Source: Eledone cirrhosa (Eukaryota). Taken from it: 64,000 bases of DNA. The stretch's first letter is position 1, and each line of letters starts with the position of its first letter. Below the pieces are notes generated by a model that made no database searches, was not told the origin of the DNA, and saw nothing but the letters and a program-made list of their open reading frames with translations. The position numbers and the translations under genes are program-made. The stretch spans positions 295,182,001-295,246,000 of the forward strand of contig OZ024741.1 in NCBI GenBank assembly GCA_964016885.1, in the 5' to 3' direction. Shown piece after piece: positions 24,186-62,484 of this stretch.

Positions 24186-24190
<5 letters not shown>

Positions 24191-24388
24191 AAAATGTATG
24201 ACCCCGACGGCAGAGCTCAAGCCGTTTCAGCGGCTATTTCTGGACTCGTCCAGAGACTCATCCAGAAATAGCTGTCAAAACGGCTTGAGCTCTGCCGTCG
24301 GGGTCATATATTTTCCTATTACCCACTCTACTACCCTAAGTACTCTGGTGCGTTATGGTCCATCTGGTTCCTTACCACAACTCCTTCA
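24186..24388. mobile_element. Fold-back element, family H2, with the 3' half of a hammerhead
   Basis: Near-perfect palindrome 24186-24319. The left arm on the minus strand reads GAAA-CGGC-loop-GCCG-TC-GGGGTC (hammerhead stem III and GUC site); the right arm has AAAA. One-sided ~70-nt extension. Confidence 0.7.
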
Positions 24389-25490: not shown

Positions 25491-26042
25491 AATATGCTGC
25501 CTAGTAAAATCTACCAGTCTCTTCCACCTTTCCCTTAATTTAGCTACTTAAGTTGGTTTTTATTATTATTCATTTTTCATAATGCGAACATTATATACAC
25601 CAAATGAAATTTGTTGAATAAATTTACGCAAGTTAAAATGAAAATATTTCAAAACAGGACATATCCTAAGTAGATGATAAACAGGAATGGTGCACCTCTA
25701 TCACATTGTAAGACCCCTGGATGTCAATCAATGTTAGTACTATCACCTGATAGAGACAGTTATTTCGTCAATATATATATATATAATATAATATAATATA
25801 TATATTAAAGAAATAACTGTCTCCATCAGGTGATTGTACAGTTTTCCAAGAGATTGTGATTTGAATGGACCTGTTTTTTTTCTCTCTCTGACTCCCTCTC
25901 TCTCTCTCATATATATATATACATACATACATGTATATATATATATGTATATATATATATATGTATATATACATGTGTGTGTATATATATATGTATATGT
26001 ATATATGTATATGTATATATATGTATGTACATATGTGTATAT

Positions 26043-30328: not shown

Positions 30329-30528
30329 AGTTATTCCGGGTTCAATCGGAGGTAAACACAGTAAGTAAGGTACTCAATACATAGCAGAGTATAAATGTTT
30401 TAATTTAGAAAAGCTTCTACAAGGCTAGAACTGTTTCATTCGTGAGAAATCATCAGGAAGCGCTTCCTGATGATTTCTCACGAATGAAGCAGTTCTAGTC
30501 CTGTAGACGCCTTTCTATATTAAAACAT
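30328..30528. mobile_element. Fold-back element, family H3, with two back-to-back type I hammerheads
   Basis: Palindrome centred at 30461/30462 plus a left-only ~65-nt extension; a related half copy lies at 51005-51090. Confidence 0.75.
30413..30461 (-). ncRNA. Type I hammerhead ribozyme motif (core intact, weak stem II)
   Basis: GCTTC-CTGATGA-TTTC-TCAC-GAAT-GAAA-CAG-TTCTAGCC-TTG-TA-GAAGC: stem I GCTTC/GAAGC, GUA cleavage triplet. Confidence 0.6.
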
Positions 30529-30672
30529 ATATATATATAAAATATATACACATATGCTATCGAAATGGTGTAGGCTTAACCATAGGACAAATCTCTTTAA
30601 TAATATCTATATGTTCCTTAAGTATAAAATACAGTTGAAAAATTGTCTTTCAGGTCTTAACTAGTAACATCT

Positions 30673-34818: not shown

Positions 34819-34899
34819 ATCTATATGTATACACACACACATTCATTCATTCAAACACACATTAACAACTAGAGAGTATCCTTCAATGGATGTTAATAT

Positions 34900-35228
34900 G
34901 CATGAACGACAAAGTATGGATGAGCTGAGAGAAAAGCTGGGTATGACAGGAAACAGATGTAGTATGCTGGAGAGGAGACTGCACTGATATGGACATGAGA
35001 TGTTTATGGATTATGGTCATTGGGTAAAGAAGAAATTCCAATGGCAGAAAGTTGCAATTGAGGGTGACCAAGAAAGACCTGGGTGACTGTTGGGAGAGCT
35101 TATCATAAGCTCACAGTGCAAATAGTGAATACCCATGTCAAGTGGAGGCAAGTTGTGCTAGATAGGACCTGTCTACCCTATGCAAACATGGAAAAACTAA
35201 AGTTAAATAATAATGATAATGATAATAC
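34900..35228 (+). pseudogene. Old degenerate RTE 3' fragment
   Basis: GATGAGCTGAGAGAAAAGCTGG, AAGAAAGACCTGGG, and an end CCTATGCAAACATGGAAAA followed by an (AAT/GAT) tail. Confidence 0.6.
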
Positions 35229-35384
35229 ATACAAACATATATATATGCACACACACATACATATATGATACACATACAATTAAACAGGTGTATATAAATG
35301 TATATATACATAAATATATATATATACAAATGCATGTATATATTTATATGTATATATGTAAACGTTTATGTATCTATATATGTA

Positions 35385-37455: not shown

Positions 37456-37518
<63 letters not shown>

Positions 37519-37676
37519 TATATATATACATTATATGTATATATATATACATTATATGTATATATATATACATTATATGTATATATATACATTATATATA
37601 TATATATACATTATATATATATATATATTATATATATATATATAAAAATATATATATTATATATATATATATATAT

Positions 37677-37707
<31 letters not shown>

Positions 37708-37848
37708 ATATATATATGTATGTATATATATATATATATATATTATGTATATATATATATATTATATATATATATATATTATATATATATATATATATAT
37801 ATGTGTGTATATATATATATATGTATGTATGTATATATATATATTATG

Positions 37849-37927
<79 letters not shown>

Positions 37928-38124
37928 GTATATATATATATATTATATGCATATGGTTATATATATATATTTGCATGTATATGTATATATATTTATGTAT
38001 CTGTATATGTATCTCTATATGCCTGTATATATTTATATATATACGTATATATTTATGTATATATATATCTACATGTATCTGTATATGTATATGCATGTAT
38101 ATATTTATATATGCATATATATAT

Positions 38125-38179
<55 letters not shown>

Positions 38180-38181
<2 letters not shown>

Positions 38182-38805
38182 GAGAGGGTGTTAAAGTTTG
38201 CTTGAAGCATTGTGAAATGTGTAAAATACGTAGTTTAGAAAGCCACAACAATGCAGAGGGAAATCTCGAGGTAGGAATTGAATGATAGATAGGAGAAACA
38301 GGAGAAAGTGAAAATTGAGAGAGACAAAGATGAAAACAAAACAAAGGTAGAAGGGTTACCGTAGTGGAGATTTAATCCCAATATTTCGGGCTCACGCCCA
38401 TCAACGGAGGAAAGTTCCAAAAGAGGGGGGAACAGGCTAAGCGGAGAAAATTGTGATGTCGTTAAGACAGGAATGCTGTTGTGCTAGAAAGGACCTGTCT
38501 ACCCTATGCAAACATGGAAAAACTAAAGTTAAATAATAATGATAATGATAATACGGCATTCCTGTCTTAACGACATCACAACTTTCTCCGCTTAGCCTGT
38601 TCCCCCCCCCCTTTTGGAACTTTCCCCCGTTGATGGGCGTGAGCCCGAAATATTGGGATTAAATCTCCACTACGGTAACCCTTCTACCTTTGTTTTGTTT
38701 TCATCTTTGTCTCTCTCAATTTTCACTTTCTCCTGTTTCTCCTATCTATCATTCACTTCCTACCTCGAGATTTCCCTCTGCATAGTTGTGGCTTTCTAAA
38801 CTACG

Positions 38806-38812
<7 letters not shown>
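38180..38812. mobile_element. Fold-back element, family H4: ~257-bp inverted arms, hammerhead-like fold, captured 77-bp spacer
   Basis: Arms 38222-38478 and 38554-38812 are nearly identical in inverted orientation; left-only ~40-nt extension; each arm has stem I-CCGTTGA-T-GGGC-GTGA-GCCC-GAAA-TATT-GGGA. Confidence 0.8.
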
Positions 38813-38851
<39 letters not shown>

Positions 38852-38876
38852 TATATATATATATATATATATATTT

Positions 38877-38958
<82 letters not shown>

Positions 38959-39045
38959 GTATATATATATATATATATATTATGTATATATATATATATA
39001 TTATGTATATATATATATATATAATATGTATATATATATATATGT

Positions 39046-39098
<53 letters not shown>

Positions 39099-39105
39099 AT
39101 ATATA

Positions 39106-39190
<85 letters not shown>

Positions 39191-39305
39191 ATATATATAT
39201 ATATATATGTGTGTATATATATATATATGTATGTGTGTATATATATATATATGTATGTGTATATATATATATATGTATATATGTATATGTATATATATAT
39301 ATGTA

Positions 39306-39447
<142 letters not shown>

Positions 39448-39454
39448 TATGTGT

Positions 39455-40029
39455 AAGACGACAGCTGTATAAAAAAGTGCAGGGCAATAAAAATAAACGG
39501 TAGCCACGGAGTAGGCAGACCAAGAAAAACCTGGGACGACTTGACATATTCCGACCTCACACACTTACACCTCTCCAAGACAATGTCACTGGACCGAGAG
39601 CTTTGGCGCTACACAGTAATAGAGAAAACCCGCCTTACCTAAGTACAAAGTGAAACCTTCTACAGTCAGTAGGCACCTTAACAAAATACACCCTGTCCCA
39701 CTACCCCATCCCATCCACACCACCCCTTCAATGTAAAGTTATGTTGGTGTCACAACATCCAGCCCGAAACAAATGAGGTCGTGTAGGTCTCACGACAAAA
39801 AAACACACAGTCCACGCTGTAATGTGGCCGTGTAGGCAACACGGTAAAAACCTCCCAGTTCCACACTGTAAATGTGGTTGGTGTTAGGAAGGGCATCCAG
39901 CCGTAAAAAACCTGTCAGACAGTCCTATGCGAGCAAGACAATCACTCTTGCCTCAAGTGGGAAAACCCCCGTCCAAACCCATGCAAGCGTGGAATATGGA
40001 CGTTAAACGATGATGATGATGATGATGAT
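39455..40029 (+). mobile_element. RTE family A 3' fragment
   Basis: [10 protein letters not shown] plus the family A 3' UTR ending GGACGTTAAACGATGATG. Confidence 0.9.
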
Positions 40030-40077
40030 ATATGTATATATATATATATATATATATTTATGTGTATATATATATAT

Positions 40078-41089
40078 CATCATCATCATCATCATCATCA
40101 CTGTTTTACGTCCGTTCTTCCACGCTAGCATGGGTTAGACGGGTTGTCCTGTTGTGGGCAGTGTCTGGTCGGCTGACCATGCCTTGCTCATACAGGAACT
40201 GATCTAGCTTGATTTCTACAGCTGGATGCCCTTCCTAACACCAACCTCATTTACAGTGAGTGCTGGGTGCTTTTTCGTGGCGCCTACACGTCCACTTTAC
40301 AGTGTGGGCTGGGTGCTTTTTTGCCGTGGCACCTCCACGACCACCTTGCGGTGGGGGGGGGGGCATATTGTTTATATGCTTCAGCATGTACCCATGGGAG
40401 GTCGGGTACCCTGTATTACTGCGTGACGCCAGAAGTCACGGTCGTGTGTCATTGACTTTGAGAGGTGTAGTTGGGTAAGGTCGGCTTTTATGACCTCATC
40501 CTAAGTCATCTTGGGTCTCCCCACTCCGCGGTTTCCATCAACTTCTAGTGCTCTGCACCTTTTTATGCAGCTGTCATCCTTCATACGCATCACATGTCCA
40601 TACCAGTGTAACCGCCTCTCCTGCACGCAGCATTTGATTCCTCTTATGCTCAGTCTCTCTCTCAATTCATTTATGCTTTGTCGTTCACGTATATTACTGT
40701 TACACATCCATCGGAGCATGCAGGCTTCGTTTCTCTCTAATCTACGTAAGTCTTCCACCTTCAGCGCCCAGGTCTCACTACCATGCAACATCGCTGTTCG
40801 GATACACGCATCATACAGTCTGCCTTTCATTCTGAGGGAGAAGCCTTTTGCAGCTAGCAGTGGTAGTAGTTCCCTAAACTTCTTCCATCCCGTTCTTACC
40901 CTAGTTATTGTACTTTCTGAGCACCCACCTCCGTTGCTAATTCGTGGTACTTGTTTCCTGTGGCTGTTTGCTTGCTGTTTCAGCACAGCTGCTGCATGTG
41001 AATCCTACATTCTTAATTAAGCTTCCTGAGATCCCGCTACATCTCTTGTGTACCCATTGTTTGCATTTGGGGCAAAGAATGGAGTTCCA
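40078..41089 (-). mobile_element. RTE family B, 5'-truncated, RT motif 7 deleted
   Basis: NSILCPKCKQWVHKRC, then ISNGGGCSES..LHGSETW..WYGHVMRM; a ~55-bp deletion near 40943 relative to the 48.3-kb copy. Confidence 0.9.
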
Positions 41090-41493: not shown

Positions 41494-44918
<3,425 letters not shown>

Positions 44919-44982
44919 AATTTTAGTACAGCATACACGAAGCTGTAGTATACGGCCAAGCTAGCGTGTATATATATATATA

Positions 44983-47942: not shown

Positions 47943-49143
47943 ATAGCTGAATCTATGGTAGAACTGGAGAAGAAATTTTAAACATGGAAGCAGGGACTAG
48001 AAAGAAAGGGTCTCAAAGACTAAGATCCTCGTAAGTAGACGAGAAAACAGAACCCAGATCCCCTCAGGGAAATGGCCTTGTTCAGTATGTAGGTAGGAAC
48101 TCCATTCTCTGCCCCAAATTAAAACAATGGCTACACAAGAAATGTTGTGGGATCTCAGGAAGCTTAACTAAGAATGTAGGCTTCACATGTAGCAGCTGCG
48201 CTGGGACAGCATGCGGCAAACAGCCACCGGAAAGAAGCACCACCAAACTCTGGGAGGGCTCTGTAAAAACAGTAGACAGCTTCTGCTACTTAGGTGACTG
48301 AATTAGCAGTGGAGGTGGGTGTTCGGAAAGTACAATAATGAGGGTAAGAATGGGATGGAAGAAGTTCAGGAGCTACTGCCACTGCCAGCTGCAAAAGGCT
48401 TTTCCCTCAAAATGAAAGGCAGACTGTATGATGTGTGTATACGAACAGCAATGTTACATGGTAGTGAGACCTGGGCGCTGTCTGTAGAAAACTTGTGTAG
48501 ATTAGAAAGAAACGAAGCCTGCATGCTCCAATGGATGTGTAATAGTAATATACGCAAACGACAAAGCATAAACGAATTGAGTGAGAGACTGAGCATAAGA
48601 GGAATCAAATGCTGTGTGCAGGGAGAGGCAGTCGCATTGGTATGGACATGTGATTCATATGAAGGATGACAGCTGCATTAGAAGTCGATGGAAGCTGTGG
48701 AGTGGGCAGACCCAAGAAGACCTGCGATGAGGTAATAAAAGCCGACCTTACCCATTGCACCTCCCAAAGGTGATGACACACGACCATGACCTCTGGCGTC
48801 ATACAGAAGACCCGACCCCCCACGGGTACAATCTGAAGCTGAAGCATATAGACAATATGCCTTCACACCCTCCCACTGCAAAGTGGTCATGGAGGTGCCT
48901 TGGCAAAAAAGCACCCAGCACTCACTGTAAAGTGGACATGTAGGCGCCATGGAAAAAAAGCACCCAGCACTCACTGTAAATGTGGTTGGTGTTAGGAAGG
49001 GCATCCAGCTGTAGAAATCAAGCCAGAATCTGTTCCTGTATGAGCAAGGCAAAGTCAGCCGACCAGACACTGCCGACAACAGGACAACTCGTTTAACCCA
49101 TGCTAGCATGAAAGAACGGACGTAAAACGGTGATGATGATGAT
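47943..49143 (+). mobile_element. RTE family B, 1.2 kb, degenerate
   Basis: AESMVELEKKF, GKWPCSVC, ISSGGGCSES, LHGSETW; type-2 tail. Confidence 0.9.
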
Positions 49144-49167
49144 ATATATATATTTATATATGTATAC

Positions 49168-49556
49168 ATTGTGGGCAGTGTCGGTTGGCTGACCATGCCT
49201 TGCTCATACGAGAACTGATTCTGGCTTGATTTCTACAGCTGGATGCCCTTCCTAACACCAACCTCATTTACAGTGAGTGCTGGGTGCTTTTTTCCATGGT
49301 GCCAACACGTCCACTTTACAGTTTGGGCTGGGTGCTTTTTTGCTGTGGCACCTCCACGACCACTTTGCAGTGGGAGGGTGTGGGAGCATATTGTCTATAA
49401 GCTTCAGCTTCGGCTTGTACCCGTGGGGGGTCGGGTCTTCTGTATTGCTGCGTGACGCCAGAGGTCACGATCCTGTGTCATCCATCACCTTTGAGAGTTG
49501 TAATTGGGTAAGGTCGGCTGTTATCACCTCATCCCAGGTCTTCTTGGGTCTACCCA
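49168..49556 (-). mobile_element. RTE family B 3' fragment lacking its extreme 3' end
   Basis: GRPKKTWDEVITADL; lies tail-to-tail with the preceding copy. Confidence 0.85.
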
Positions 49557-60195: not shown

Positions 60196-61935
60196 CTAAA
60201 TGAGGAGAATAAATGGGAGAAAGACAGCCTCCCCCATATCGACCCAATAGAGGGACCAGCAGTGTTAGTCGAGGGGAGTATAATAAGTAAGGCAATCAAG
60301 GATATGAAGATGGGTAAGGCGGCTGGGCCTTCGGAAATAGTTGCTGAGATGCTGAAGGCATCTGGCACGGTGGGACACACCATGGTCACCCGCATAGTTA
60401 ACCAAGTCGTACAGAATGGGGTTGTTCCGAAGGACTGGCATAGCAGGATCATCGTTAACTGTTATAAGGGTAAAGGAGACGCCCTAGATAGGAGTAACTA
60501 TAGAGGCATTAAATTAATCGACCAGGTCATGAAGGTCACGGAAAAAGTAATAGCGCAACTAATCAGAGAGAGAATTGACCTAGATGAAATGCAGTTCGGG
60601 TTTGTGTCAGGCAAAAGTACCACAGACGCTCTTTTCATTGTACTACAACTAAAGGAGAAATACCTAGCTAAAGGTAAACCCCTCTACTTAGCTTTTGTCG
60701 ACTTGGAGAAAGCCTTCGACAGAGTCCCCCGCTCCATTATCTGGTGGGCTCTTAGAAAACTAGGCGTTGACGAATGGCTTGTGAGGGCTATACAAGCCAT
60801 GTATAAAGAAACAGTCAGCAAGGTTAGAATTAACAACGAATATAGTGAAGAGTTTAGCGTAAAAGTTGGCGTCCATCAGGGCTCTGTTCTCAGCCCCCTA
60901 CTATTTATTATTGCCCTTCAGGCTATAACAGAGGAGTTCAAGACCGGCTGCCCATGGGAACTCCTATACGCAGACGACCTGACACTAATAGCGGAATCAA
61001 TGGCCGAGCTAGAGAAGAAATTCCAAACATGGAAGCACGGCCTAGAGTCAAAAGGACTTAAAATTAACCTGGCTAAGACTAAAGTTCTAGTTTGTAGGAA
61101 AGAAAACAAGGCGGCGGTCCCTTCTGGGAAATGGTCGTGCTCAGTGTGTAGGAAAGGCGTAGGTAGAAACTCCATTTTATGTCCTAAATGCAAAGTATGG
61201 GTGCATAAAAGATGTAGTGGGATCACAGGTAAGCTAACTAAGAACATAGATTTTACATGTGGCCGGTGTTCTGGTGCAATAAGTAGCAGCAAGTGCCCAC
61301 AAAATACTATCTCTTTCAATTGCGCAGAGGGTTCTATAGAAATAGTGGACAGCTTCCGTTACCTGGGCGATAAAATCAGCAGTGGGTGAGGGTGCTCTGA
61401 AAGTACAGTAGCTAGAGTCAGAACTGGTTGGAAAAAGTTCAGAGAGCTTATACCACTATTAGCTGCTAAAGGGTTCTCCCTAAAAATGAAAGGCAGGTTG
61501 TACGATGCCTGCATACGAACAGCAATGTTGCATGGCAGTGAGACCTGGGCATTGTGTGCAGAGGATATACGCAGACTAGAGAGGAACGAAGCTTGCATGC
61601 TCCGCTGGATGTGTAACAGTAATATACGTGAACGGCAAAGCATAAACGAACTAAGGAAAAAATTAGAAATAAGAGGGATCAGATGTTGTTTACTCGAGAG
61701 AAGGCTACGTTGGTATGGACACGTGATGCGCATAAAAGTCGATAGCTGTATAACAAAGTGCAGGGCAATAAAGATAGACGGTAGTCACGGAATAGGCAGA
61801 CCTAGAAAAACCTGGGACGAGCTGATAAACTCCGACCTCACACACTTACACCTCTCCAAGACAATGTCACTGGACCGAGACCTTTGGCGGTACTCAGTAA
61901 CAGAGAAGACCCGCCTTGCCAGTAGGCATCTCTAA
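60196..61935 (+). pseudogene. RT ORF fragment with a single in-frame TGA at 61387-61389
   Basis: ORFs 60136-61389 and 61486-61935 are in the same frame; the linker reads *GCSESTVARVRTGWKKF. Confidence 0.9.
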
Positions 61936-62290
61936 CAAAATACACCCCGTCCCACCACCCCCACCCCATCCACACCACCCCGTTCTATGTAAAGTTATGT
62001 TGGTGCCGCGCCATTCAGGCCGAAACAAATGAGATCGTGTAGGTGTCACGACAAAAAAACACACAGTCCACGCTGTAATGTGGCCGTGTAGGCAACACGG
62101 TAAAAACCTCCCAGACCCACACTGTAAATGTGGTTGGTGTTAGGAAGGGCATCCAGCTGTAGAAAACCTGCCAGACAGTCCTATGCGAGCAAGACAATCA
62201 CTCTTGCCTCAAGTGGGACAACCCCCATCCAAACCCATGCAAGCGTGGAACACGGACGTTAAACGTTGATGATGATGATGATGATGATGA
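60196..62290 (+). mobile_element. RTE family A LINE, 2.1 kb, 5'-truncated
   Basis: Complete RT core with YADD, the PHD insert and the C-terminal domain; (GAT)n tail; nearly identical to the inverted copy at 41547-43650. Confidence 0.97.
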
Positions 62291-62484
62291 TATATCATCA
62301 TAAAAAAAACAACAAACGGTCGGACTGTTTTCAATGAATATTTAACTCCGTTCCTACACCAGCCATGAGATACCACATCTATGATGGATGATTTGCATAA
62401 TGTCAAATGATTTAATTTATTGCAACATCATTTACTAACCAGAATCGCAGGTTCTACCCATTGGTAAACAACCTAACATAAATG

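Follow-up and report, generated by a model that had tools for sequence, protein, structure and literature searches.

We describe an insertion of a Penelope-like element (PLE) in Eledone cirrhosa in which two inverted element ends enclose a 77-nt spacer that appears, on sequence comparison, to be a copy of DNA about 3 kb away, of local and not of independent origin. The insertion lies in the window, by which we mean the whole 64,000-nt stretch of contig OZ024741.1 that was analysed, and has the inverted-pLTR form, with one arm carrying a 40-nt tail, the other lacking it, and both sitting in a (TA)n array. Its left side begins with a TA-rich microsatellite array (37456..38181; 726 nt, 92% AT), the left part of the target site, followed by the tail (38184..38223, minus strand), which is the 3'-most element end and matches the 3' end of family copy L081. 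This extension is present on the left arm and absent from the right arm, and in tandem copies it holds the first codons of the ORF, which starts inside the tail in copy L127. The left arm (38224..38480, minus strand) is the 3' pLTR region of a PLE, 5'-truncated about 298 nt from the tail end, and bears most of the private changes. The spacer (38478..38554, plus strand) is a direct-orientation copy of 35152-35228, and beyond it the right arm (38553..38810, plus strand) is an inverted, tail-less 3' pLTR region whose end corresponds to position 41 from the tail end. A second TA-rich microsatellite array (38811..39450; 640 nt, 95% AT) forms the right part of the target site. The donor has GTT in common with the left arm (38478..38480, plus strand) and AC in common with the right arm (38553..38554, plus strand), so that, with these 3 nt and 2 nt of microhomology set aside, 72 of the 77 nt are net non-element DNA between the arms (38481-38552). 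With 96.9% complementarity between 38222-38479 and 38553-38812 over 260 columns (6 mismatches and one 2-nt gap), a 76/77 spacer match and TA arrays on both sides, the original prediction of inverted arms enclosing a 77-bp local copy in TA was borne out. The 631-nt stretch of the insertion is predicted to fold at -310 kcal/mol. Five differences, comprising three G>A and one C>T in the left arm and the spacer mismatch, crowd at 38407-38489, within about 85 nt of the left junction, in numbers too small for interpretation.

The local origin of the spacer rests on its matches inside and outside the window. Within the window, 38478-38554 is identical to 35152-35228 at 76 of the 77 positions (E 1e-33), and in a search of the 3.0-Gb genome, in which 40 of 85 candidates were scored, the same place was the best non-self match (99%, E 6e-30), just as had been expected, and the second-best match reached 82% only. 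The chance of the best match falling within 3.3 kb is about 2e-6. Thus, the earlier claim of local copying in place of independent insertion is upheld. Genome-wide, no arm-spacer-arm unit was found at other loci, the spacer being joined to the arms at the window locus only. The donor (35152..35228, plus strand) consists of the 3' end of a decayed LINE-like repeat with its simple-repeat tail, lies 2,954 nt beyond the tailed end of the insertion and is contained in a decayed LINE-like 3' fragment (34860..35228, plus strand; paralogues at 66-74% over 34890-35245). The source had been named as the tail of a decayed LINE, and this stands insofar as the donor comprises the 3' end of a dispersed, decayed repeat together with its ATG/TAA-type tail (paralogues at 66-82%); the more specific label of RTE-type LINE is one that we presume, from its translation. 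The lone mismatch is at 38489, where the spacer has A and the donor T. As A is also found at this site in 10/12 aligned paralogues of the donor repeat, the donor likely mutated after it had been copied into the spacer, which in turn makes misassembly less favoured. The differences between spacer and donor (1/77) and between the arms (5/247; family median 0.5%, 90th percentile 2.1%) are compatible with a single age.

The arms represent the 3' end of a Penelope-like element that is young and high in copy number, with a reverse transcriptase (RT) and, at the C terminus, a GIY-YIG endonuclease (EN). A genome search with the arm returned 1852 first-look candidates, many of them copies at 97-98%, and the tail-less arm end adjoins TA at at least 326 exact-pattern places in the genome. 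The window copy consists of noncoding 3' ends only, and the coding evidence comes from other copies of the family: one ORF of L081 matches the Pfam domains RVT_1 (E 7e-11) and GIY-YIG (E 1e-4), RT first and endonuclease second, and two other copies have open frames of 832 and 877 codons. Together with the pLTR and tail structure, the L081 domains confirm the PLE-like identity that had been proposed for the arms. With the motif definitions for EN+ PLEs taken from PMC8557442, inspection of the translations by eye found VVY..CDKC..YIG with downstream histidines, SDKG, GPKF and CCHH. The linker before the EN reads C-x4-C-x6-C; its cysteines are present, but it differs from the literal CX2-5CxxC, which Neptune and Nematis have and Penelope and Poseidon lack. 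The unit is about 3.43 kb long and is found in partial tandems, in which the ORF has its start within the upstream unit's final 40 nt. A hammerhead core (CTGANGA..GAAA) was not found on either strand of one tandem copy, and no Rfam hammerhead matched inside the pLTR at E<=1; according to PMC8557442, a hammerhead is not universal in PLEs, Naiads being without one. Separately, a sub-threshold match to Rfam hammerhead HH9 was seen at L127:6151-6221 (minus strand; 28.5 bits, E 0.0017). A PDB search yielded weak RT matches only, and the Atlas unnamed eukaryotic HTH/GIY-YIG clusters. PLEs have been described as forming inverted-pLTR insertions with a one-sided tail of 30-40 nt (PMC8557442, PMC3846280), and for one PLE it was found in vitro that both target strands are cut and extended, with RT starting at two sites that bound the tail (PMC11167929). 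How tandem and inverted PLE ends form is called an open question in PMC8557442, and PMC13282606 contributes background on Penelope counts and nothing on junctions.

Local capture recurs in this family, with a frequency of about 1%. When fold-backs at the same spot as the window's, with arms 12-160 nt apart, were sought by pattern, 32 matches were obtained at 30 places. With 80 letters displayed per side, a long foreign spacer was seen in the window copy only, the arms at the remaining places being separated by sequence of the element, by repeats of its ends or by short fillers of AT. A catalogue of 188 tail-less ends was then divided into 127 two-armed records, with one insertion counted from both ends, 54 solo records and 7 truncated at the limit of the retrieved sequence. 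A flank-derived spacer occurs in 1/127 two-armed records, namely the window's own, ascertained case, and in 0/126 of the others. The spacer is absent from the other family copies in both the fold-back search and the catalogue and, as predicted, is not a fixed part of the family. The further suggestion that other copies might hold pieces of their own neighbourhoods found no support among the other two-armed records and one positive case in the solo record L143. The tail-less 5' end of this copy runs into an inverted duplicate of its own flank of about 180-200 nt (98% over about 180 nt), in which L143:4401-4609 is the inverted copy of a donor at L143:4825-5030, 0.2-0.6 kb into the flank, followed by microsatellite. 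The best genome match of the inverted piece is local, unique sequence included. With the window and L143, local captures number two among 181 resolved records, and these are too few for a rule on distance or strand. Since solo records were mostly searched in their own flank, distant donors could be missed: 22 adjoin TA directly and 32 do not, and of the latter, which have at least 14 nt before the TA run, 5 were searched genome-wide and the rest in 3-10 kb of their own flank.

Junctions of the short two-armed records hold other additions as well. Among the 78 such records, 17 besides the window's have extra junction pieces of at least 13 nt, 15 of which are element-derived and 2 unassigned, and a comparison of these pieces with their own flanks found no match longer than 12 nt. 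The 15 element-derived pieces show that re-priming took place repeatedly at the joints. Three hot-spot junctions (G000:C11:21104829-21104910, L090 and L097) carry the arm's final 17-25 nt re-iterated head to tail 2-3 times, a pattern reminiscent of repeat addition through realignment.

Several candidate captures were rejected. The fillers of L025, L114 and L159 proved to be the element's own 5' region, and at L099 and L176 the arm is joined to other repeat families of high copy number, the best match not being local. The junction DNA of L171 (30 nt) and L220 (104 nt) is single-copy, and these are therefore flank joins and not copies. For L160 and L178 the match is to the end of another repeat family, which leaves them ambiguous; L160:3585-3666 has an 18-nt inverted flank copy across (TA)23 at its 5' junction, for which a snap-back and a tiny second insertion are not distinguishable. 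In the joins of L099 (5537-5771) and L176 (4787-4994), the arm stands head to head with an arm from another repeat family, itself high-copy and TA-flanked; this is either a chimera of two families or a target deletion that reached into an adjacent element. The partner in L099 belongs to a hairpin family with arms of 235 and 172 nt and a 63-nt one-sided extension, and is probably another PLE. L202 and L206 show two tail-less ends close by in place of a tailed and tail-less pair. Elsewhere in the window, oppositely oriented copies of a young LINE (41548-43577 and 60290-62291) lie 17 kb apart at 97-98% identity and encode an RT followed by a PHD finger, with an APE domain at 43680-44960. Further self-inverted repeats at 48703-49556, 39777-40342, 30390-30533, 24186-24319 and 25737-25839 are likely further fold-back repeat families.

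The family also bears on how the two arms arise. In 68/78 short two-armed records the tail is on the opposite arm. At eight polymorphic sites both arms carry the same subfamily allele in 448/452 comparisons (0.50-0.77 expected per site if independent), and 44 rare variants are common to both arms in the 78 records. The 5' ends of the arms lie within 5 nt of each other in 19/78 records, against 7.2 expected (maximum of 18 in 5000 permutations). A hot spot at positions 280-299 accounts for the ends of 31/78 tail-less arms; outside it, 10/52 pairs of ends still fall within 5 nt, against 1.9 expected. Both window arms end at 295-298, i.e. at the family hot spot. The hot spot as a transcription start was not supported, since the ends of upstream pLTRs in tandem copies range over 14-608 nt, with one near 300. 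The tail-less arm stands alone in 54/188 records and always starts at position 41, and thus looks like a primed cDNA in its own right. The concordance of alleles and the symmetric arm ends suggest that both arms may be copied from one RNA, each primed separately. Fold-back of one cDNA, or later homogenisation of the arms, would also give the allele concordance.

How the flank DNA came between the arms is best explained, in our view, by microhomology-primed copying of exposed flank DNA that bridged the two cDNA ends during sealing of the insertion, with host break repair as the likeliest agent, a reading that we hold with about even confidence. According to this model, the GIY-YIG nuclease would cut both strands of the (TA)n array, and both 3' ends would prime reverse transcription on one RNA from start sites 40 nt apart, the two cDNAs stopping near position 297, a hot spot in the family. 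The left end would then be resected, baring the top strand out to about 3.3 kb. The right cDNA end could anneal to the donor by 2 nt, gain about 75 nt and be released, after which the extended end would pair with the left cDNA end by 3 nt, giving a direct 'cross-junction' templated insertion. The bridging polymerase might be Pol theta-like or another. If the right-arm end was primed, the template would be the top strand of the left flank, exposed by 5' resection, and L143 likewise would use the exposed strand of its own end; as the polarity of synthesis cannot be read from sequence, this strand argument is permissive only. The position of the donor in the left flank, its direct orientation and the microhomologies of 2-3 nt are in line with theta-mediated templated insertions, whose microhomologies peak at 2-3 nt and which include a cross-junction class (PMC11541566). 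However, theta-mediated templates usually lie no more than about 20 bp from the break and give inserts of <25 bp (PMC11541566, PMC12426944), and the window insert, with 72 nt copied over 2.95-3.3 kb, greatly exceeds both the typical distance and the typical length. L143 falls into the class of resected-end fold-backs (inverted duplications) described for L1, where such events occur at breaks (bioRxiv 2024.12.14.628481, PMC10191854).

A possible alternative, to which we give tentative credence, is that the PLE RT ran off the 5' end of the RNA, jumped onto nearby nascent RNA or ssDNA, copied about 75 nt and then joined the other arm. Both arms stop at the hot spot, where re-iterated element ends are common, and the extent of the copied stretch, from the point at which the two arms give out to 2 nt beyond the LINE tail, suits such a jump. 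Copying from the right arm would begin at the LINE tail and run 5'-ward on the sense strand, as from RNA, but this start can also reflect microhomology with an AT-rich repeat. The insert length and distance beyond those typical of theta-mediated insertions also favour a jump, and there are precedents in one L1 insertion with co-inserted nearby pre-mRNA (PMC10191854) and in R2, where priming by cDNA ends takes place on nearby DNA or on additional RNAs (PMC11371274). Against it, a Pfam scan of 27 of the 204 window ORFs found no host exon and so gives no indication of a transcript running across the donor; for L143, fold-back of the target end suffices, RT not being needed; and an L1 study favours end-joining over template switching for local inversions (bioRxiv 2024.12.14.628481). 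The original prediction had the RT jump onto a nearby template. Its local template stood, whereas the role of RT is not established and host end-joining fits at least as well because of the 2-3-nt microhomologies, the resection-exposed strand and the flank fold-back of L143. The picture of an RT that jumped and came back is probably wrong, as the spacer looks like a bridge between two cDNA ends. We also regard as rather doubtful the general proposition that a Penelope-like RT, an enzyme related to telomerase, itself bridges cDNA ends by jumping, sometimes onto nascent RNA or ssDNA kilobases away, and so packages host DNA between pLTRs at insertion, with arms from both strands primed on one RNA at two start sites.

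It is unlikely that the insertion began as a near-perfect palindrome whose centre broke later and was mended by templated insertion from DNA close by. Palindromes are known to undergo repair after breakage at the centre, many copies are perfect or near-perfect palindromes at the same spot, the predicted folding of the 631-nt stretch would suit it, and the five differences cluster near the left junction. Yet neither arm is shorter than the hot spot, the ages of arm and spacer are compatible, and none of the other 126 two-armed records has a flank-derived spacer, many being more palindromic. An assembly error, by which a local read fragment was misplaced into a hard palindrome between TA arrays, is very improbable. 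No contig of runs X1-X4 covers 38424-38489 or crosses either junction, and one X1 contig runs unbroken through the donor, reading 34915-35250 without differences; but these runs may come from other individuals and may be without the insertion, and holes in their contigs prove nothing. Moreover, the one base by which the spacer differs from the donor is in the paralogue state, the junction microhomologies sit at the family hot spot, and the arms differ from each other at 7 places. Independent insertion of a short LINE tail from elsewhere into the palindrome centre is already largely refuted, for while the spacer is exactly a LINE-like 3' end with its tail, the best other copy reaches 82% against 99% locally, there is no target-site duplication, and a best match this near would scarcely arise by chance.

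The inverted-pLTR form of the element is already documented, as is, in Adineta Penelopes, the capture of host DNA between pLTRs (PMC3846280). What is new here is a PLE junction with a mapped local donor, together with junction statistics across a family; in the open-access literature, supplements aside, we found no PLE junction traced to a neighbouring donor. The proposed sequence-capturing route for PLEs would be a rare one, and both PLE capture and local copying by L1 and R2 have been published. As an accident at about the 1% level with L1 and R2 precedents, the locus is of value as a mechanistic footprint and not as a new system. The family offers hundreds of young junctions that bear on the origin of tandem and inverted PLE ends, and its rare captures whose local donor is mapped illustrate the way in which host DNA may come between pLTRs. 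If bridging by the RT were true, gene capture framed by pLTRs, as known from rotifers, would have a mapped first step in this locus.

Compared with known systems, the insertion is closest in form to the inverted-pLTR insertions of EN-containing PLEs (PMC8557442, PMC3846280, PMC11167929), with the same inverted 5'-truncated copy at the 5' end, one-sided tail of 30-40 nt, palindromic junctions, (TA)n targets, partial tandems and RT with C-terminal GIY-YIG. It differs in that the DNA at its junction includes non-element sequence with a donor mapped 3 kb off and in that no hammerhead motif was found in the family. The Penelopes of Adineta vaga likewise frame unrelated host sequence by pLTRs, and template jumps were proposed there (PMC3846280); in the accessible text their spacers measure 0.9-1.5 kb or are whole genes, with no neighbouring donor mapped, whereas the window spacer is 72 nt, single-copy and local and shows no sign of further mobilisation. 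Theta-mediated cross-junction insertions (PMC11541566, PMC12426944) have the same direct template in the retained flank and the same 2-3-nt priming and resolving microhomologies, but typically span 20 bp to the template and <25 bp of insert, in contrast to 3 kb and 72 nt here. In L1 (PMC10191854; bioRxiv 2024.12.14.628481), fold-back inverted flank duplications of 52-220 bp resemble L143, one co-insertion of sequence from the vicinity is described, and local rearrangements accompany <1% of insertions; the window piece, unlike these, bridges two overlapping PLE 3'-end arms in direct orientation and is germ-line fixed in the assembly. Finally, at the snap-back and extra-template 5' junctions of R2 (PRINT; PMC11371274), the cDNA 3' end likewise primes extra synthesis, with cDNA or nearby DNA as template, before the join, in a different class of element and from one primed strand, whereas the window insertion has two arms.
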